The notes under the pieces are model-generated. The model had not been told where the DNA came from, made no database searches, and was given only the letters and a program-made list of their open reading frames with translations. A program made the translations under genes and the position numbers. This document shows, in pieces, positions 1,649-59,534 of a stretch of 64,000 nucleotides of DNA. The stretch is from an uncultured Spirochaetota bacterium (GTDB lineage: Bacteria > Spirochaetota > UBA4802 > UBA5550). Each line of letters opens with the position of its first letter. Positions within the stretch are counted from its first letter, which is position 1. The stretch spans positions 3,936,813 through 4,000,812 of the forward strand of contig OW818666.1 in NCBI GenBank assembly GCA_942493035.1. Reading direction: 5' to 3'.

Positions 1649-3277
1649 TTATGGTTTTGTAAAAAGTTTTTCCGATTCAAGTATCTCTCTGCTTTTTCTA
1701 TCCTGATCCCAGCCTAAAATTGTTCCTGCTGTATCAGCTATCTTCATAAGTGTATCTTTTCCGGGATGGCCAAGTGTGCCTAAACCGGTTCTCCTGAATA
1801 AAATATCCGTAAGTTTTAAAGCCATTTCATTCTCTACAGCATAAATAATCTGTGCCGGGATTTCACCTTCAGTTGTGAGAGGTGTAGCTAAAGCTTTGTC
1901 TTTTTCCGCAATATCCATGAGACTATCTATCTCGGTGCCGTAAACTCTTGAAAGATAATCTACTGATTCTGAAGGGAGATTGCTATACTTTGTTTTACAG
2001 AATTCTACGAATGCATTGATATCTTCTATTTCAGAACCGTATAGAAATTCTTTATCGGTTCCGGCTTTTTTTTGCGGCAGTCCGAGTTTTCTGCACGCCA
2101 TTTTCATTACGTTTTCGGCAAGGTTCCGGCTTGTTGTATATTTTCCACCTTCAACTGTGATCAGTCCATCCAAACCGTCTAAACTGTTATCAAAGATTTC
2201 ATATTTTCTTGAAGATTCATAAACATCTGCAGTCTGATCCTCAACAAGGGGGCGCAGTCCGCCGTAACAGTAAAGAATATCATCATATGAAATTTTAACA
2301 TTTTCACCAAAGGATGCATTTACATCATCAACCAGTTCCATGACGCTCTCTTTTCTGATTTTCCAGTCATCGGGGCTTCCGATGTATTCTTTATCCGTTG
2401 TTCCTATTAACGAATAACCTCTCCATGGTATTATAAAAATATGCCGTCCCCCGGGAGTTGACGATGTAACAAGATACTTGCTGAGAATTTTTTTTGTAAT
2501 TATATGTATCCCTTCAGATCTGCGGAGAACCTCTTTATGCTCTTCAGTTCCAGTGAGAGATAAAACTCTGTCTGCCCATGGACCGGCACAGTTTATTGTA
2601 ATCTTTCCTTTTATTGATAATTCGCGGTTGCTGATTTTATCTAAAACATTTACTCCATCTATTCTGGTGTTGTTGATTCTGAATCCTTTTACTTCCATGT
2701 AATTTGCAACATCAGCACCTTTTGCTGCTGCTGACTTGATGAAAGCAAGTGTGAGACGTTCAGGACAGAGGCTTGCGCAATCATAATACACAAGTGATCC
2801 ATCCTGCTCTTTACTGTCCAGTGTCGGTTCCTGTTTAACGGTTTCTTTTCTGGAGAAGTTTTTGTGTGACGGGAGTTTTTTACTTTTGTCCCATGTAAAT
2901 TTTTTATCGAAAGATAATATGTCATAAAGAATCATACCGATTTTAAGTAGATGTTTCTGTTTTTTCATCGCAGGATTATTGAATATTATCATGTTTCCGA
3001 TGGGGTAAACAAAATTCGGCGCTATATTTTCAAGCACACGTCTCTCTTTTAAGGATTCACGTACAAGTGAGAGTTCAAAATTTGCCAGATATCGAAGACC
3101 ACCATGAATCAGTTTTGATGTTGCAGATGATGTTTTTGAACCGAAATCATCTTTTTCCACTAATGCAACAGAGAGTCCCCTTGATGCTGCATCGTATGCA
3201 ACTGCAGCTCCGGTTATACCTCCGCCGATTACGATTATATCGTATTCATTGCTGCTGTTAAATTCAGATCTTATCAT
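1649..3277 (-). CDS. FAD-dependent glycerol-3-phosphate dehydrogenase/oxidase (GlpA/GlpD/GlpO family)
   Basis: 542 aa; N-terminal dinucleotide fold DIIVIGGGITGAAVAYDAASRGLSVALVEKDDFGSKTSSATSKLIHGGLRYL; ATG start with GGAGAG SD. Confidence 0.85.
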   Translation of the reverse strand: MIRSEFNSSNEYDIIVIGGGITGAAVAYDAASRGLSVALVEKDDFGSKTSSATSKLIHGGLRYLANFELSLVRESLKERRVLENIAPNFVYPIGNMIIFNNPAMKKQKHLLKIGMILYDILSFDKKFTWDKSKKLPSHKNFSRKETVKQEPTLDSKEQDGSLVYYDCASLCPERLTLAFIKSAAAKGADVANYMEVKGFRINNTRIDGVNVLDKISNRELSIKGKITINCAGPWADRVLSLTGTEEHKEVLRRSEGIHIITKKILSKYLVTSSTPGGRHIFIIPWRGYSLIGTTDKEYIGSPDDWKIRKESVMELVDDVNASFGENVKISYDDILYCYGGLRPLVEDQTADVYESSRKYEIFDNSLDGLDGLITVEGGKYTTSRNLAENVMKMACRKLGLPQKKAGTDKEFLYGSEIEDINAFVEFCKTKYSNLPSESVDYLSRVYGTEIDSLMDIAEKDKALATPLTTEGEIPAQIIYAVENEMALKLTDILFRRTGLGTLGHPGKDTLMKIADTAGTILGWDQDRKSREILESEKLFTKP

Positions 3278-3965
3278 AATTACTCTCCAGATAAATTAAA
3301 GTTTTTTTCTCAGCATAAACTATTACATCTGACATAATTTTTTTTGCTGATTTTGCATCACCGGCTATTATAGCTTTTGAAATTTCAGTATGGAATTTTG
3401 TTGTAACTTTTATATTCTCATCGATTGTGAAGTAGAGCTGGCCGAAATCCTTGAATATATCGTTAAAAAAATTGAGAATGAATATGTAGAGTATATTATT
3501 CCCTGCTCTTGCGATCATCTGATGAATAGATATGTCCTTTTCAATCAAAGATTTTTTCGAAGTAAGTATTTGCTGGAAAGATCCGATGTCTGAATCAGTT
3601 CTGTTAAGTGCCGCTTTTTCTGCCATTTCGGGAGAAATTATTCTGCGAAGTTCCAGAATGTCTTTAAAGACATCAGCGGTTTTGTCTTTCTTCAGATATA
3701 GAATATGTTTTAAAAGTTCAAGGTTTCCTGAATCCCTATAGTCTTTTATATATATTCCATCCCCCTGACGGACAGAGAGAAGACCAAGAGATTCCAGTTT
3801 CCTCAATGCTTCACGGAGTGTGTGACGGTTTACATTCATTTTGTCAGAAACTTCCCTTTCCGGAGGGAGTTTTTCTCCAGGGATAAGAGCTCCTGATATT
3901 ATACGGTTTATAATCTGAGCAGCAACTTCATCACTTAAATTTTTTTTGTTTATTTCAGTAAACAT
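3264..3965 (-). CDS. GntR-family transcriptional regulator (FadR-like, FCD domain)
   Basis: 233 aa; N-terminal winged HTH (EKLPPEREVSDKMNVNRHTLREALRKLESLGLL) plus C-terminal ligand domain; overlaps the downstream G3P dehydrogenase gene by 14 nt. Confidence 0.8.
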   Translation of the reverse strand: MFTEINKKNLSDEVAAQIINRIISGALIPGEKLPPEREVSDKMNVNRHTLREALRKLESLGLLSVRQGDGIYIKDYRDSGNLELLKHILYLKKDKTADVFKDILELRRIISPEMAEKAALNRTDSDIGSFQQILTSKKSLIEKDISIHQMIARAGNNILYIFILNFFNDIFKDFGQLYFTIDENIKVTTKFHTEISKAIIAGDAKSAKKIMSDVIVYAEKKTLIYLESNYDKI

Positions 3966-3984
3966 TTATTACACTCTTTGGTAT

Positions 3985-3999
3985 ATTGGTTGAACCAAT
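3985..3999. promoter_or_regulatory. Perfect palindrome ATTGGTTGAACCAAT just upstream of the GntR gene; candidate GntR-type operator
   Basis: Fits the GT-N3-AC core typical of GntR/FadR operators; lies 20-35 nt upstream of the GntR start. Confidence 0.3.
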
Positions 4000-4039
4000 A
4001 ACACAAACTATTATTTTGTTATAAAAGTCAAATTATTTT

Positions 4040-4232
4040 TAGTATTTATTCCTTAATTTTTCTAAAGTGCGGTCCCAAAAACCTCGTTTAAGAAACCGCA
4101 GGGAGCCATGCGGGGCTTATAAAGGGGCTGCTGCCCCTTTGACCCTGTAAAGGTTGAGTTTATAGAATTGCCCTAAAGTAATAAAAGCGATATATCCCCG
4201 CCGCCGAAGGCGGCGGGGATATATAATTTTTT
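4040..4232 (+). repeat. Hairpin-repeat family B copy, opposite orientation, with ~125-nt GC-rich structured insert
   Basis: Reverse-complemented module AGTATTTATTCCTTAATTTTTCTAAAG (4042-4067), GC-rich segment 4068-4180 with nested stems (GGGGCTGCTGCCCC), then hairpin CCCCGCCGCC-GAAG-GGCGGCGGGG (4196-4218) and an A/T run. Confidence 0.5.
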
Positions 4233-4434
4233 TCACTAAAAATTATATTTATGAATAATTACTGAATTATTTTTATTTTTTGCTATTTTTTCCTTTTACT
4301 TTACAAATAGTTTCTTTTAACGATAAATGGCTTTATAGTAGCTTGTATGATATTTTAAATCAGTAATAATTCATATACTCTTTACTGCGGTAGATTAAAA
4401 GTTACGCTTTAGATGCAAATGGAGTTTAAAATAA

Positions 4435-6087
4435 ATGAAATTCAGTGAATTTAATCTTGATGAGAAAATATTAAAAGGTATTGAAGATGCAGGTTTTGTT
4501 AACTGTACGGAAGTGCAGGCGGAGTCTTTAAAGTATACACTTGACGGGAAAGATATCCTTGTTCAATCCCAGACAGGGACCGGGAAAACTGCCGCATTTA
4601 TGATTCCGCTTTATCACCTCCTTTTAACTAATGAAAAGATGAAAAATAAAAAAGTTCTTATTCTGGCTCCAACAAGAGAACTTGTAATACAGATAGAGAA
4701 AGAGGGGAAACTTCTTGGTGCCCATCTTGATATTAAAATTCAGAGCTTCTACGGCGGTGTCGGGTATAATCAGCAGGAAAATGCCATGAAGGAGGGAGTC
4801 GATATTTACGTAGGAACTCCCGGAAGACTAATGGATTTTGCCAGCAGCGGAAAGATCAAATTCGGAGAGTTTGGTATTCTTGTTATAGATGAAGCTGACA
4901 GAATGTTTGATATGGGATTTTTCCCGGATATAAAAAGAATGATGAAACGCATGGTTTCACCATCTGACAGAATCTCTATGCTTTTCAGTGCTACTTTAAG
5001 TTCCAAGGTAAAGAATCTTGCATGGGAATATATGAATGACCCTGTTGAAGTTACTATTTCCGGCGGACAGGTTACGGTTGAAAAAATTAAGCAGGTTCTT
5101 TATCATGTGGGAACCAATGAAAAGATAAGTCTTCTTCTTGGAATTCTTAAGACACAGAATCCTCAAAACGCGCTTGTATTCACAAATACCAAACAGGACG
5201 CAGTAAAAGTCGCCGCAAGACTTGCAGGTAACGGATACGAATGCAGCTATATTATTGGTGACCTTCCACAGAGTAAGCGGTCTAAAATTATTGAAAATAT
5301 TAAATCGGGTAAACTGAAATATCTAGTTGCAACAGATGTTGCTGCAAGAGGACTTCATATTAACGATCTCGATATTGTAATAAACTACGATATTCCCGAA
5401 GATTTTGAAAATTATGTTCACAGAATCGGGCGGACTGCAAGAGCCGGTAAAACCGGTATGGCCGTAACTTTTGCATGTGAGAAATTTGTATATGGACTTG
5501 AGGCTATAGAGTCATATATAAAAATGAAGATTCCCGTAGAGTGGGCCGGGGACGAGATGTTTGCTGAAGATATGAGTAAAGATGAATTTATCAGAAATTA
5601 TATGAGAGAATCAAAGCAGACAAGAATTGTTTCTGAACATGATGATAAAAAGACAGACAAATTCAGCAAAGATAGAAAAGGGAAAGATAGACCTGCTGCT
5701 GGAGCAAGACCTGAGAAGAAAGATTTCCGGAAAGGTCCTGATAAGAGAGAGGATAAAGATTTCAAAACCAAAAAGAATATTACTGAGACAAAACCTAAAG
5801 CTCCATCCGATAAGAAGGTTTATGATAAAAACAGTAATGATAAAAATAACCGTAAAAAAGATACTGTTACCGAAAAAGTAAATGATAGAGCATCTAAAAA
5901 TCTTACTCCTGATAAGAGAATGGATTATTATAAAGAGAAATACGGAGAGGATTTTACTGTTAAAAGAGAGATTACTGCAGATCCTTCGAAAAAAAGTAAA
6001 AAACCGCCGGTTACAGCTGCAGCAAAGACTCCAGAAAAAAGCAGTTCACTTATTAGCAGGATAAAATCTATTTTCAGAAAGAAATAA
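4435..6087 (+). CDS. DEAD-box ATP-dependent RNA helicase with lysine-rich basic C-terminal tail
   Basis: 550 aa; Q-motif/Walker A (SQTGTGKT), DEAD motif (VIDEADRM), SAT, HRIGRTAR; GGAG SD upstream of ATG. Confidence 0.9.
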   Translation: MKFSEFNLDEKILKGIEDAGFVNCTEVQAESLKYTLDGKDILVQSQTGTGKTAAFMIPLYHLLLTNEKMKNKKVLILAPTRELVIQIEKEGKLLGAHLDIKIQSFYGGVGYNQQENAMKEGVDIYVGTPGRLMDFASSGKIKFGEFGILVIDEADRMFDMGFFPDIKRMMKRMVSPSDRISMLFSATLSSKVKNLAWEYMNDPVEVTISGGQVTVEKIKQVLYHVGTNEKISLLLGILKTQNPQNALVFTNTKQDAVKVAARLAGNGYECSYIIGDLPQSKRSKIIENIKSGKLKYLVATDVAARGLHINDLDIVINYDIPEDFENYVHRIGRTARAGKTGMAVTFACEKFVYGLEAIESYIKMKIPVEWAGDEMFAEDMSKDEFIRNYMRESKQTRIVSEHDDKKTDKFSKDRKGKDRPAAGARPEKKDFRKGPDKREDKDFKTKKNITETKPKAPSDKKVYDKNSNDKNNRKKDTVTEKVNDRASKNLTPDKRMDYYKEKYGEDFTVKREITADPSKKSKKPPVTAAAKTPEKSSSLISRIKSIFRKK

Positions 6088-8364: not shown

Positions 8365-8440
8365 TTATATATCCCCGTCGCCTTCGGCGACGGGGATAAT
8401 AGAGCCTTTTTTACAATAGAAAAATTAAGGAATAAATACT
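8365..8440 (+). repeat. Hairpin-repeat family B copy
   Basis: ATATATCCCCGTCGCC-TTCG-GCGACGGGGATAATAGAG, T-run, TAGAAAAATTAAGGAATAAATAC; stem carries compensatory G>T / C>A changes. Confidence 0.55.
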
Positions 8441-19817: not shown

Positions 19818-19842
19818 CACCGCCGCCAAAGGCGGCGGGGTG
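19818..19842 (+). repeat. Hairpin-repeat family B, short copy
   Basis: CACCGCCGCC-AAAG-GCGGCGGGGTG between convergent ruvC and the beta-CASP RNase gene. Confidence 0.4.
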
Positions 19843-24577: not shown

Positions 24578-25423
24578 ATGATTATTAACCACAATATGTC
24601 CGCTATTAATGCAAACAGAGCCCTAAAATTTCAGAACTGGAACGTAAGCAAGAATATGGAAGCTCTCTCTTCCGGTTTGAGAATTAACAAAGCTGGCGAT
24701 GATGCATCAGGTCTTGCAGTATCAGAAAAAATGAGAACTCAGATTAACGGTTTAAGACAGGCTGAAAGAAATACTGAAGATGGTATGTCTTTTATCCAGA
24801 CAACTGAAGGATATCTTGATGAAGTATCAAGCATTATCCAGAGAGTCAGGGTTCTTGCTGTACAATCTTCAAACGGAATCTATTCTGTAGAAGACAGACA
24901 GCTTATCCAGGTTGAAGTTTCTCAGCTGGTTGATGAAGTAGATAGAATTGCATCACAGGCGGAGTTTAACAAAATGAATCTTCTTCAGGGAGATTTTGCA
25001 AGAGTAAGTGTTACAGCATCTATGTGGATACACATGGGAGCAAACATGCATCAGAGAGAAAGAATATTCATTCAGACAATGACTGCTAAAGCTCTTGGTC
25101 TGAAAAATATGACAGGTAACCCTATCACTCTTTCAACTGCTGGTGAAGCGAACAGAAACATCGGGGTTATGGACAATGCTCTTCATGTACTTTCAAAGCA
25201 GAGAGCGGATTTAGGAGCATACTACAACAGGATGGAACATGCTGCTAAAGGCTTAATGACAGCGTATGAAAACATTCAATCATCTGAAAGCCGTATTAGA
25301 GACGCAGATATGGCAGAGACTATGGTTGATTTTACTAAGAATCAGATTCTTGTGCAGAGTGGTACTGCGATGCTTGCTCAGGCGAATTCAAAGTCTCAGG
25401 GAATTCTCCAGTTACTTAGATAA
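24578..25423 (+). CDS. flaB: Flagellar filament core protein FlaB (spirochete flagellin)
   Basis: 281 aa; N-terminus [18 protein letters not shown], conserved flagellin N- and C-terminal domains. Confidence 0.95.
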
Positions 25424-25660: not shown

Positions 25661-25780
25661 GTCTGTATTCCCTATAGTAAGAGTACAAACCTGGTATCAA
25701 ATGCCTGATAAGGATGTCAGGCAGTTTCGAGTCCTGTAGGAGGGACTTTAAACATCTAATTAAACAAAGGAGTGTTTAAT

Positions 25781-26632
25781 ATGATTATCAATCATAACAT
25801 GAGTGCAATCAATGCTAATAAAGCGTTGAAGTTCAAGCAGTGGGATACAAACAAGTCAATGGAATCTCTTTCCTCTGGTCTCCGGATCAATAAGGCTGGA
25901 GATGATGCTTCAGGACTTGCTGTGTCTGAAAAGATGAGAACACAGATTCAGGGTTTAAGACAGGCTGAGAGAAATACTGAGGATGGTATGTCTTTCGTTC
26001 AGACTACTGAAGGGTATCTGAACCAGACTACTGAAATACTTCAAAGGATTAGAGTTCTTGCCGTACAATCTTCAAACGGTATCTATTCTGATCAGGATAG
26101 ACAGCTTATCCAGGTTGAAGTTTCAGCTCTTGTTGACGAAGTTGACAGGATAGCATCACAGGCTGAGTTTAATAAATTTAAACTTCTGCTGGGGGATTTC
26201 TCAAAAACCGGTGCGAAAGCCAGTATGTGGTTTCATATGGGTGCAAATATGAATCAGCGGGAGAGGGTTTATATTGGTACTATGACTGCGAACGGTTTAG
26301 GTCTTAAAGAAAAAAATGGCGCCTTTATCGCTGATCTGGCATCTGCTGACAGCGCAAACAGAACTATTGGTGTGGTCGACGATGCTCTTCACAAAATTTC
26401 TAAGCAGCGGGCGGACCTTGGCGCATATTTTAACAGACTCGACTATGCTACAAGAGGTCTAATGACTGCCTATGAAAATATACAAGCATCCGAAAGCCGG
26501 ATAAGAGACGCTGATATGGCTGAAACAATGGTTGATTTAACAAAAGATCAAGTTCTAGTGCAGAGTGGTACTGCGATGTTAGCTCAGGCAAATATGAAAA
26601 CAAGAACCATTCTTCAGCTTCTTGGCGGTTGA
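25781..26632 (+). CDS. flaB: Flagellar filament core protein FlaB, second paralog
   Basis: About 283 aa from ATG 25781 (AAAGGAG SD; track start is GTG); N-terminus [18 protein letters not shown]. Confidence 0.95.
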
Positions 26633-40689: not shown

Positions 40690-40726
40690 ATATTCCCGCC
40701 GCCTTTGGCGGCGGGAATAATAGAGC
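40690..40726 (+). repeat. Hairpin-repeat family B copy
   Basis: ATATTCCCGCCGCC-TTTG-GCGGCGGGAATAATAGAG between the thiolase stop and the acyl-CoA dehydrogenase start. Confidence 0.5.
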
Positions 40727-45995: not shown

Positions 45996-46048
45996 TTTAA
46001 AATCAGTAATTACACCTAAATATAATTTTTAGAGTAAAAGGCAAAAAA

Positions 46049-46120
46049 ATATATCCCCGCCGCCATTGGCGGCGGGGATAATAGAGTTTTGTTACTTTAG
46101 AAAAGTTAAGGAATAAATAC
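46049..46120 (+). repeat. Hairpin-repeat family B copy
   Basis: ATATATCCCCGCCGCC-ATTG-GCGGCGGGGATAATAGAG, then TTTAGAAAAGTTAAGGAATAAATAC. Confidence 0.55.
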
Positions 46121-46211
46121 TGATTTAAACTGTATTTATTGATTATTTTTTGCCAAATTTGTAATGAATATATTGAATCTAAAATAGAAAATACTACAAA
46201 CCGGGGGATCG

Positions 46212-53451: not shown

Positions 53452-53910
53452 ATGAGGGATTTTTTTATCGGGGAGAGGATATTATTAATTGAGCGAATGA
53501 TCCTTTCCGTTGGGGTGAATGATTATTCGCCCGTACGAGGTTGAGAGAAATTTTATAAAGGGGATATTTTTAGGAGTGGGATTTTTTTATCGGGGGAGAG
53601 GGGATTTTTAATTGAGCGAATGATCCTTTCCGTTGGGGCGAATGATTATTCGCCAGTACGAGGTTGAGAGAAATTTTATAAAGGGGATATTTTTAGGAGT
53701 GGGATTTTTTTATCGGGGAGAGGGGATTTTTTAATTGAGCGAATGATCCTATCCGTTGGGGCGAATGATTATTCGCCCGTACGAGGTTGAGAGAAATTTT
53801 ATAAAGGGGATATTTTTAGGAGTGGGATTTTTTTATTGGGGAGAGGATATTTTTAATTGAGCGAATGATCCTATCCGTTGGGGCGAATGATTATTCGCCC
53901 GTACGTGATT
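53452..53910 (+). repeat. Tandem array of four ~122-bp units, each with REP hairpin GGGCGAATGATTATTCGCCC
   Basis: Near-identical units beginning AGTGGGATTTTTTTATCGGGGAGAGG...; each holds GAGCGAATGATCC plus the palindromic GGGCGAAT-GATT-ATTCGCCC followed by GTACG. Confidence 0.85.
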
Positions 53911-54013
53911 GGGAGAATAATATTTATAAAATATTTTTTATTAAGGGAATTTTTTAAAAATTTCTCTGCTGCTATCGTATTCATATGTAAGAAATATTAT
54001 TAAGGAATTTAAA

Positions 54014-54565
54014 ATGTCATATAATCCGGTTTTTCATCATAGGCGATCTATTCGTTTAAAGAGATTTGATTATTCTTCTTCGGGTGCATATTTTGTTACT
54101 TTATGTGTAAAAAATAGAACAAAAATTTTTGGCTATATTGTCGGTGGTAAAATGATTTTAAATGCTGCCGGTATAGCAGCTCAGTTATGCTGGCAGGAGA
54201 TACCTTTACATTATCCCTTTGTTTCTCTGGATGTATTTGTTATTATGCCCGATCATATTCATGGGATAATTTTGATTAAGGAATCGGATTTGAGGTGGGG
54301 AAAGGATACTGATGTCGTGGAGAATGATTATTCGCCTGTACGTGAAAATGATAATTTGTTTCATAATAAGCGGCCGCGCGGTACTTCAAAAACAATCGGA
54401 TCGGTTGTTCGCGGATATAAGATAGGTGTAACAAAATGGTTCCGTAAGCATACACTTGTCGAGTCTGTCTGGCAGCGAGATTATTATGAGAATATTATAA
54501 GAAATTATGATGATTTAAATCGAATTCGTAGGTATATTATAAATAATCCGCAGAAGTGGAGATAG
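54014..54565 (+). CDS. REP-associated tyrosine transposase (RAYT; IS200/IS605-like HUH Y1 transposase)
   Basis: 183 aa; N-terminal GAYFVTLCVKNR, HUH motif PDHIHGII, C-terminal WQRDYYENIIR...YIINNPQKW, all resembling E. coli RayT/YafM; flanked on both sides by REP copies. Confidence 0.8.
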   Translation: MSYNPVFHHRRSIRLKRFDYSSSGAYFVTLCVKNRTKIFGYIVGGKMILNAAGIAAQLCWQEIPLHYPFVSLDVFVIMPDHIHGIILIKESDLRWGKDTDVVENDYSPVRENDNLFHNKRPRGTSKTIGSVVRGYKIGVTKWFRKHTLVESVWQRDYYENIIRNYDDLNRIRRYIINNPQKWR

Positions 54566-56174: not shown

Positions 56175-56296
56175 TCATTCACCTGTTATTTAACCTGAAT
56201 TAAACTTTGTAATGAAATATCTCTGTTCAATATAATAGTTTAATTTTTATCCGGTAATTATTCCTAAATATAATTTTTATTGTAAAAAACAAAAAT

Positions 56297-56369
56297 TTTA
56301 TATCCCCGCAGCTTCCGGGGGCGTAGATAATAGAGTTTTTTTATTTCAGAAAAGTTAAGGAATAAATAC
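56297..56369 (+). repeat. Hairpin-repeat family B copy, degenerate stem
   Basis: TTATATCCCCGCAGCTTCCGGGGGCGTAGATAATAGAG, T-run, TTTCAGAAAAGTTAAGGAATAAATAC. Confidence 0.5.
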
Positions 56370-56406
56370 CGTTTTTTATCACTGAAAATTCTTGGGAACA
56401 TGAATT

Positions 56407-59224: not shown

Positions 59225-59362
59225 AAAAAAGCCGCGTACGGAGGAACGCGGCATATACATTGATAATCTATAGTTATTGTACTGCCGTTTCCCTCCGCCG
59301 GTATTAACCGGATCAGGTAAAAAGGGTATAATCTCAGCACGCATTTACTGCGGCACCCCTAA
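59225..59362 (-). promoter_or_regulatory. TPP (THI-box) riboswitch with terminator expression platform
   Basis: Minus strand reads UAGGGGUGCCGCAGUAAAUGCGUGCUGAGAUUAUACCCUUUUACCUGAUCCGGUUAAUACCGGCGGAGGGAAACGG, then hairpin GCCGCGUUCCUCCGUACGCGGC plus U-run, then GGAGGAA SD and the thi4 AUG. Confidence 0.9.
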
Positions 59363-59534
59363 CGGTAAAAATTTTATCAAAGAACTGATTTATTAAAAAA
59401 TCTACCGGGCATTGATGTCAATTAATTATTATATTTTTAATCTAATAAAAATATAATAATTTAAAGCGCTGTGAATTTCTATTATAAACAAGCCAGTGTC
59501 GAAAAACCATGATTCTAAAAACTAGCTGATATTA

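Follow-up and report, generated by a model that had tools for sequence, protein, structure and literature searches.

Architecture of the GntR–helicase intergenic region

The 64,000-nt stretch of uncultured Spirochaetota DNA analyzed here, hereafter the window, contains a divergent 469-bp spacer (3966–4434) flanked by a GntR/FadR-family regulator gene (3264–3965, minus strand; Pfam GntR, FadR_C and FCD domains) and a DEAD-box helicase gene (4435–6087, plus strand; DEAD and Helicase_C domains). At 3985–3999, 20 nt upstream of the regulator gene start, lies ATTGGTTGAACCAAT, a perfect palindrome of the form 7-1-7 that is invariant in all the relatives examined. By analogy with the known form of GntR-family operators, this palindrome is probably the regulator's own operator. 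A promoter-like block precedes the helicase gene (block P, 4290–4342, plus strand), with TTTACA at 4300–4305 and ATAAAT at 4323–4328 separated by a 17-nt spacer, and we infer that it corresponds to the helicase promoter.

Related loci were fetched via a GntR protein search and originate from uncultured Spirochaetota, including Spirochaetae bacterium HGW-Spirochaetae-5. The GntR–helicase synteny is retained in the relatives fetched, and block P is near-invariant in the alignments of L002, L006, L009, L010 and L026. The leader is shortened in L009, where only ~27 nt lie between block P and the helicase ATG.

A family-B MITE with a terminator-like hairpin

Judged from its sequence organization, the segment spanning 4040–4264 (225 bp, plus strand) is a copy of the family-B repeat and a MITE, a non-autonomous transposable element. 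We classify it as such because of its terminal inverted repeats (TIRs), its target-site duplication (TSD) of fixed length, its small, non-coding and multi-copy form, and the existence of an empty site in relatives. The TIRs of the MITE are CAGTAtTTATTCC. The left module, tAGTATTTATTCCTTAATTTTTCTAAAG (4040–4067, plus strand), matches over its first 14 nt the reverse complement of the right end, and is mirrored by the right module, ...TATTTATGAATAATTACTG (4237–4264, plus strand); the ends of this copy compare as tAGTATTTATTCC and CAGTAATTATTCA. The element is bordered by two copies of AATTATTTT (4031–4039 and 4265–4273), which are identical at 9/9 positions, a perfect match with a chance probability of ~1e-5 given the local base composition. 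The repeat unit had been drawn too small in the preliminary description of this locus, as it extends over 4040–4264 with the addition of the 9-bp direct repeats on either side.

The window holds at least six full or partial family-B copies, all of which are intergenic and devoid of an ORF. Canonical copies are 119–120 bp long. Those at 46004–46122 and 56252–56371 are flanked by 9-bp direct repeats with an 8/9 match, and the TIRs of the latter agree at 13/14 positions (CAGTATTTATTCCT compared with CAGTAATTATTCCT, the reverse complement of the right end). When placed in a common orientation, the copies adopt a layout in which the left end (CAGTATTTATTCCTTAAyTTTTCTrAAG) is followed by a spacer of ~20 nt, a hairpin, a T-rich run and the right end, ...AAAAATTATATTTAGGAATAATTACTG, the reverse complement of which, CAGTAATTATTCCTAAA, mirrors the left end. 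When up to 3 mismatches are allowed, the 26-nt flanking module found at 4042–4067 has four occurrences in the window, with none expected by chance. Indeed, as first reported, the 4040–4264 copy is the only one in its orientation, since the copies at 8373, 40694, 46055, 56300, 59989 and 62951 are all on the minus strand and the hairpin-only copy at 19818 is not orientable.

The MITE hairpin and its T-run (4190–4233) comprise 16 pairs, 10 of them G–C, and are terminator-like on both strands. The hairpin core (4196–4218) reads CCCCGCCGCC-GAAG-GGCGGCGGGG and is present at eight loci of the window versus none expected. Features of an intrinsic terminator are found at 4190–4224, where the stem-loop is followed by AATTTTTTTC on the plus strand and by CGCTTTTATT on the minus strand, and the hairpin scores as a predicted intrinsic terminator in both directions. 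A terminator scan of the region yielded four sites versus 0.3 expected. Elsewhere in the window, hairpin-only family-B cores without terminal repeats lie between genes at 19818–19840 and 40694–40716, where they probably serve as terminators.

The empty site is provided by L002, L006 and L026, which do not carry the MITE; they align with the window sequence once the MITE and one of the two TSD copies are taken out. The empty site reads ...GTCAA(T)TTTTTTTTATTTTTT...CCTTTTACTTTACA, alternatively written ...GTCAATTTTTTTTTATTTT...TTTTTTCCTTTTACTTTACAAATAG. The MITE inserted, with duplication of 9 bp, into a T-rich spacer between the regulator gene and the helicase block P. Outside the window, the TIR motif was detected in no relative but the closest one, L008, and no autonomous insertion sequence (IS) with the same ends occurs in the window. 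In L008 (positions 1–150; GntR 94% identical), an identical left TIR occupies the same insertion site, AATTATTTT being followed by TAGTATTTATTCCTC..., and the interior downstream of the TIR is unrelated, with the contig ending after ~130 nt of it. The L008 element could be a longer family member, an autonomous IS or an assembly join through the repeat. A related MITE of L009 also has a long interior between the left repeat and the hairpin, with a different sequence.

The GntR–helicase spacer is an insertion hot-spot. It harbors other MITE-like insertions in L009 and L010/L011 (83% and 75% GntR identity, respectively). The insertions seen at L009:2650–3000 and L010:2627–3000 differ and have similar end motifs and GCCGCC hairpins.

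An independent element inside the MITE

In place of TTTTCTAAAGTAACAAAACTCTATTATCCCC, the sequence of the canonical MITE copies, the 4040–4264 copy has TTTTCTAAAGT-insert-CTAAAGTAATAAAAGCGATATATCCCC. On either side of the insert is a copy of the 7-bp direct repeat CTAAAGT (4062–4068 and 4173–4179), which canonical MITEs carry once at this point in the form CT[AG]AAGT. With these borders, the insert amounts to 111 nt instead of the ~125 nt given initially. The GC-richness that had drawn attention to it is confirmed (49.6% GC over 4068–4180, where the window as a whole has 37.3% and the intergenic region 30.9%). The related loci led us to revise the view of the segment as an insert peculiar to this repeat copy, since the segment is a member of a separate element family that has come to reside inside the MITE. 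We refer to this element as S (4064–4176, plus strand; 111–113 nt, 50% GC), a candidate RNA with a covariance-model score of 115.6 bits. S is the single match of the model in the window with filters off and is also unique by blastn. Within the right 7-bp repeat, CTA is homologous to the S 3′ end and AAGT to the MITE.

Lack of conservation in related genomes had been named as what would speak against the candidate; S was instead found in at least five distinct related Spirochaetota sequences, with compensatory base changes. Homologs of the window copy are present in L002, L005, L006 and L015. Full copies occupy the helicase leader of relatives with 86–89% GntR identity (L002–L004, L005 and L006/L007), ~10–20 nt downstream of block P, and L026 contains the start of S followed by the end of the contig. 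In L002, L005 and L006, S is followed by a 6-bp hairpin and a U-rich tract, a weak terminator-like arrangement, and the helicase SD and ATG come ~100 nt further downstream. At the corresponding position, the window has only ~36 nt (4343–4378, plus strand) when aligned to the L002 and L006 leaders. From weak sequence similarity, these may tentatively be described as a stump resembling helix P1 of S (4343–4360) followed by TIR-like CAGTAATAATTCATATAC (4361–4378). S is missing from L009 and L010/L011.

A different context was observed in L015, as extended by L023, where S is found 45 nt in front of the gene for an ECF-transporter S component and points away from that gene. This copy is convergent with the preceding DAO-family gene, has no downstream ORF and is antisense, by its plus strand, to the 5′ region of the ECF gene, which is hard to reconcile with a plain leader function in cis. 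In L002–L007, L026 and L015/L023, S is present without any family-B TIR. The sequences flanking S vary with the context, with AAGT, AGGT or ATGG on the 5′ side and AAGT, CTAC or TAAT on the 3′ side.

A shortened S-like variant, made of P1 and the tail without helices H2 and H3 (27.9 bits), was detected in L020 and L022 and is absent from the otherwise identical L021. It is carried by a 79-nt, TGG-flanked indel that distinguishes L020:3834–3913 and L022 from L021, in an HGW-Spirochaetae-5-like genome. A further small element of L020, at ~3670–3800 (reverse complement), is located upstream of the ECF transporter gene and has inverted ends that are rich in GC, AGCCCCCTAAATCCCCGG ... CCGGGGGATTTAGGGGGCT.

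Searches beyond these loci returned little. A metagenome scan with a consensus S pattern gave four loci, of which one was real (L015) and three were chance matches in coding DNA. With an insert-derived pattern, representative genomes, a collection that does not include the source genome, gave just one chance match, in an Actinomycetes MAG; nothing was found in viral contigs, plasmids or phages. Within the 186 kb formed by the window and the related loci, the covariance model detected no further copy above noise. Searches of Rfam 15 with the window, L015 and L005 copies of S gave no match, whether the gathering threshold was applied or the cutoff was relaxed to E ≤ 10, and ARAGORN detected no tRNA or tmRNA. 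S also lacks the conserved flanking motif and the high copy number of IS200/IS605- or REP/RAYT-type elements. We take S to represent a family of structured elements, small and of low copy number, that is specific to an uncultured Spirochaetota clade. On comparative sequence grounds, what is new here is a candidate structured RNA family of putative function, without Rfam match, found inside a MITE.

Structure and conservation of S

Three hairpins in succession, P1, H2 and H3, are predicted both by RNAalifold and by folding the sequences of the relatives singly. P1 (4068–4100, plus strand) pairs UGCGGU with ACCGCA and has a distal AAAC/GUUU segment; its consensus is a helix of 12–13 bp with a bulge, and both sides change in 5/12 pairs. 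H2 (4103–4118, plus strand) reads GAGCC-AUGC-GGGGCUU in the window, with a consensus of GAGCYC-NNNN-GRGCUU, and its 3′ half can alternatively pair with 4143–4149. H3 (4122–4139, plus strand) reads AAGGGGC-UGCU-GCCCCUU, with a consensus of AAGRGG-loop-CCYCUU; it is paired in 100% of the alignment cells and includes one double change from G–C to A–U in L006. The 3′ tail (4140–4176, plus strand) is mostly unpaired and contains CUGUAAAGRUURA, the columns of which are invariant in 5/5 copies and which is, along with UAUAAAG, a conserved unpaired motif. The nested stems named in the preliminary description are present in the RNAfold minimum-energy structure of the window sequence.

Over 27 pairs in five copies, 94.7% of the cells form standard pairs and eight pairs show double changes. 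None of 500 column shuffles reached these two values, and sliding the 3′ partners by 1–3 columns reduced the pairing to 39–57%. The five distinct full-length copies score 113–121 bits, as expected for a model built from the same copies. As these five sequences represent approximately four independent lineages and the alignment was fitted to the model, we regard the modeled covariation as supportive, not conclusive. The S copies of L002 and L006 share 72% identity, yet the helices are kept; block P looks far better conserved in the alignments. A second model, in which GCGGGGCUU pairs with a downstream CYYUGUA, corresponds to the minimum-energy fold of the window copy and is almost as well kept. 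Both sets of pairings fit the data, and loop substitutions in L005 favor H2.

The plus strand is 94.7% paired, with nine G–U cells versus two C–A cells, compared with 89.5% for its complement, and S most likely acts as a plus-strand RNA. Folding of the insert alone gave z-scores of −1.85 (plus strand) and −2.29 (minus strand), modest values that give no basis for choosing between the strands, and the z-score of −4.98 obtained for 4068–4235 is mostly due to the MITE hairpin. As the stability of the insert is unremarkable, the case for structure rests on the comparative data and not on thermodynamics. Among the five copies, that of the window has the most non-canonical pairs, namely three: C–A and A–A in P1 and A–G in H2. 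This degeneracy fits a relaxed constraint.

Several additional features were considered and discarded. The closing helix P2 (AGGG/CCCU) is not conserved across S copies. Pairing between the S 3′ motif UGUAAAGAUU and the leader box AAUCUUUACA, which would be a cis interaction in relatives and a trans interaction in the window, has duplex energies no better than shuffled sequences; the two form a 10-bp match in L002 and L005. A likeness to group II intron domain V (AGC...GUU, by eye) was set aside, as the stem is broken by a 27-nt insert and no Rfam intron matched, as was an attC-like site, since the R″/R′ core motifs are absent by eye.

Transcription context of the S copies

In relatives, the helicase mRNA would open with the ~110 nt of S, as a 5′-leader or attenuator module; alternatively, S may be released as a short RNA by premature termination at the weak terminator. 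Temperature- or helicase-dependent control of the DEAD-box gene via S is plausible.

The window copy is placed differently. The leader S of relatives comes after block P, whereas that of the window precedes block P, is separated by 13 nt from the strong terminator-like hairpin of the MITE, and therefore cannot act as a cis leader of the helicase. Plus-strand transcription entering from the regulator side would yield an RNA of ~240 nt ending near 4233 and uncoupled from the helicase ORF, so that the window S could act only in trans or else be a decaying passenger. A consensus promoter-like site at 3959–3987 (plus strand; TAAACA-17-TATATT with TG; 9/12), which is a pattern match only, points into the MITE and S and overlaps the regulator start codon and the operator palindrome; the RNA of ~240 nt would be its product. 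This 9/12 site aside, inspection by eye showed no convincing promoter preceding S, be it in the window or in L015, and a promoter-like site inside S (TTGACC-18-TAGAAT, 10/12) was rejected, as it is not conserved in other S copies.

The initial proposal of a non-coding RNA candidate is therefore upheld in one respect and weakened in another: conservation, covariation and the absence of an Rfam match make a structured RNA reasonable, but the window copy has no evident promoter and the most degenerate helices. The window S is thus a credible, and unproven, non-coding RNA candidate.

Origin of the S-bearing copy and alternative explanations

In the model alignment, the window S is 78% identical to the L015 copy (ECF locus) and 58–69% identical to those of the helicase leaders, a group apart with 72–88% identity among themselves. 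This sequence grouping assigns the window S to a GC-richer paralogous sub-family. We rejected the notion that S simply shifted from the leader into the MITE, 270 bp upstream, as the window copy groups with the ECF-locus copy and not with the leader copies.

The explanation that we favor, with a little more confidence than doubt, is that this MITE copy acquired a conserved structured element, most likely an RNA, which is here confined to action in trans or decaying as a passenger. The 111-nt S would have been gained secondarily, between the left inverted repeat and the built-in terminator hairpin. We consider S an acquisition and not the ancestral interior of the MITE because S is more widely spread than the MITE family and occurs without TIRs. 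The CTAAAGT repeat can be read as a target duplication generated by S insertion or as microhomology; the latter reading comes from the fact that S elsewhere begins with A(G/A)GT followed by GYGG and ends in ...YYCTA, matching the adjoining CTA and AAGT of the MITE. The converse scenario, in which the 225-bp form is the ancestral MITE, S is part of it and the 120-bp copies arose by deletion through CTAAAGT recombination, would account for the 7-bp direct repeat that flanks exactly the extra 111 nt, and the related MITE of L009 likewise has a long interior, of another sequence. We nonetheless hold it to be very unlikely, given that S of the relatives lacks the family-B TIR and hairpin module, that the family is restricted to the window and L008 whereas S is spread wider, and that a single long copy exists among the at least six MITE copies of the window.

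More weight is due to the idea of S as a small element that is mobile or duplicative in its own right, folded as single-stranded DNA or RNA and nested in the MITE, as reported for BOX, RUP and SPRITE elements of pneumococcus; its conserved hairpins would then serve this mobility and not gene regulation. The same boundaries (RGKGYGG ... YYCTA) recur in three unrelated contexts (helicase leader, ECF upstream region and MITE interior) and in both orientations relative to the neighboring gene, a 7-bp direct repeat flanks the window copy, the short variant of L020 and L022 is missing from the otherwise identical L021, and the metagenome contigs L022, L025 and L026 end inside S, as contigs do at repeats. 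The copy number is low, however, with no more copies in the 186 kb of window and loci; S has no terminal inverted repeats, its other copies show no consistent target duplication or flanking motif, and the leader copy is vertically inherited at one site across lineages in which S is 72% identical. On balance, we judge this explanation unlikely. That S forms a leader or riboswitch controlling the helicase in the window genome itself seems more improbable still than an ancestral 225-bp MITE: S is on the helicase strand with a terminator after it, and S of the relatives does sit in the helicase leader, but the window S is upstream of block P (4300–4328), the 16-bp terminator hairpin and the MITE right arm intervene between S and the gene, no Rfam aptamer matches, and its nearest relative is not a leader copy. 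Least credible of all is a functionless GC-rich filler with chance stems, which would be compatible with the insert-only folding z-scores of about −2 on either strand and is contradicted by compensatory changes conserved in five sequences and at least two genomic contexts.

The possible readings of the window S can also be grouped in another way; the following estimates are broader cuts than the ranked explanations and need not sum to the weights given to those. That the window S is a passenger or relic is a serious possibility, somewhat short of an even chance, a functional trans-acting or independent RNA in the window is doubtful, and S being primarily a mobile element is slightly less probable than that. 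A bolder reading, for which we see only a slim chance, is that S represents a new class of structured regulatory RNA which natively controls a DEAD-box helicase mRNA from its very 5′ end, and of which the MITE packaged a copy beside its own terminator as a portable promoter-less or hybrid-promoter sRNA gene. If true, the locus would directly exemplify how a transposable element turns a cis leader into a spreadable trans-acting RNA.

If S is a functional RNA, a clade of uncultured spirochaetes that has received little study would gain a structured motif not described before and linked to expression of a DEAD-box helicase. The window would also show that a MITE of bacteria can carry a regulatory RNA element of its host beside a ready-made terminator, a plausible route from cis elements to sRNA genes or to rewiring. 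If S is only a passenger, the locus offers a clean, datable case of small elements nesting within one another in an intergenic region that is an insertion hot-spot. In both cases, the S covariance model is a concrete search tool.

Comparison with known systems

Plant Pack-MULEs and Pack-MITEs are non-autonomous transposons that capture host sequence between their terminal repeats. The S-bearing MITE shares with these elements a non-autonomous form with a host-derived interior. The captured piece is in contrast a non-coding structured element of ~110 nt, present in a single copy, with no sign that the composite transposed more than once.

Among bacteria, the pneumococcal SPRITE, BOX and RUP elements and QMITE1/2 of Coxiella burnetii have been reviewed, including elements nested in each other, as have the sRNAs Cbsr3, Cbsr13 and Cbsr16, which originate from MITEs (PMC10969869). 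Like family B, the Streptococcus pneumoniae elements and QMITE1/2 are short, non-coding and bounded by TIRs, and they occur as multiple intergenic copies with a Rho-independent terminator-like core. The likeness is one of layout, and the RNA-like segment of the MITE described here differs in lying outside the repeat family, being a copy of an independently conserved element that elsewhere occupies a gene leader.

In architecture, S of the relatives (L002, L005 and L006) also resembles bacterial structured 5′ leaders and attenuators, as it is positioned just after a promoter block and is followed by a terminator-like hairpin. The likeness is limited to this architecture; S has no Rfam match and no supported antiterminator alternative was found. 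S would lie within the 5′ UTR in L002, L005, L006 and L026; the L015 copy, by contrast, is antisense to the neighboring gene and the window copy is outside the transcription unit.

Other repeats and RNA elements in the window

The only Rfam match in the window is a TPP riboswitch at 59273–59370 (minus strand), with 73 bits where the gathering score is 54.3. At 53458–53950, a 123-nt unit with a GGGGCGAATGATTATTCGCCC hairpin is repeated in tandem to give four copies, and related units extend to about 55110, with dispersed partial units at 54310, 54642 and 55079; the 123-nt unit has no Rfam match at the gathering threshold. Finally, the adjacent ORFs at 24578–25423 and 25772–26632 are paralogous, with a DNA identity of ~76%, and correspond to the repeat families D5–D7.
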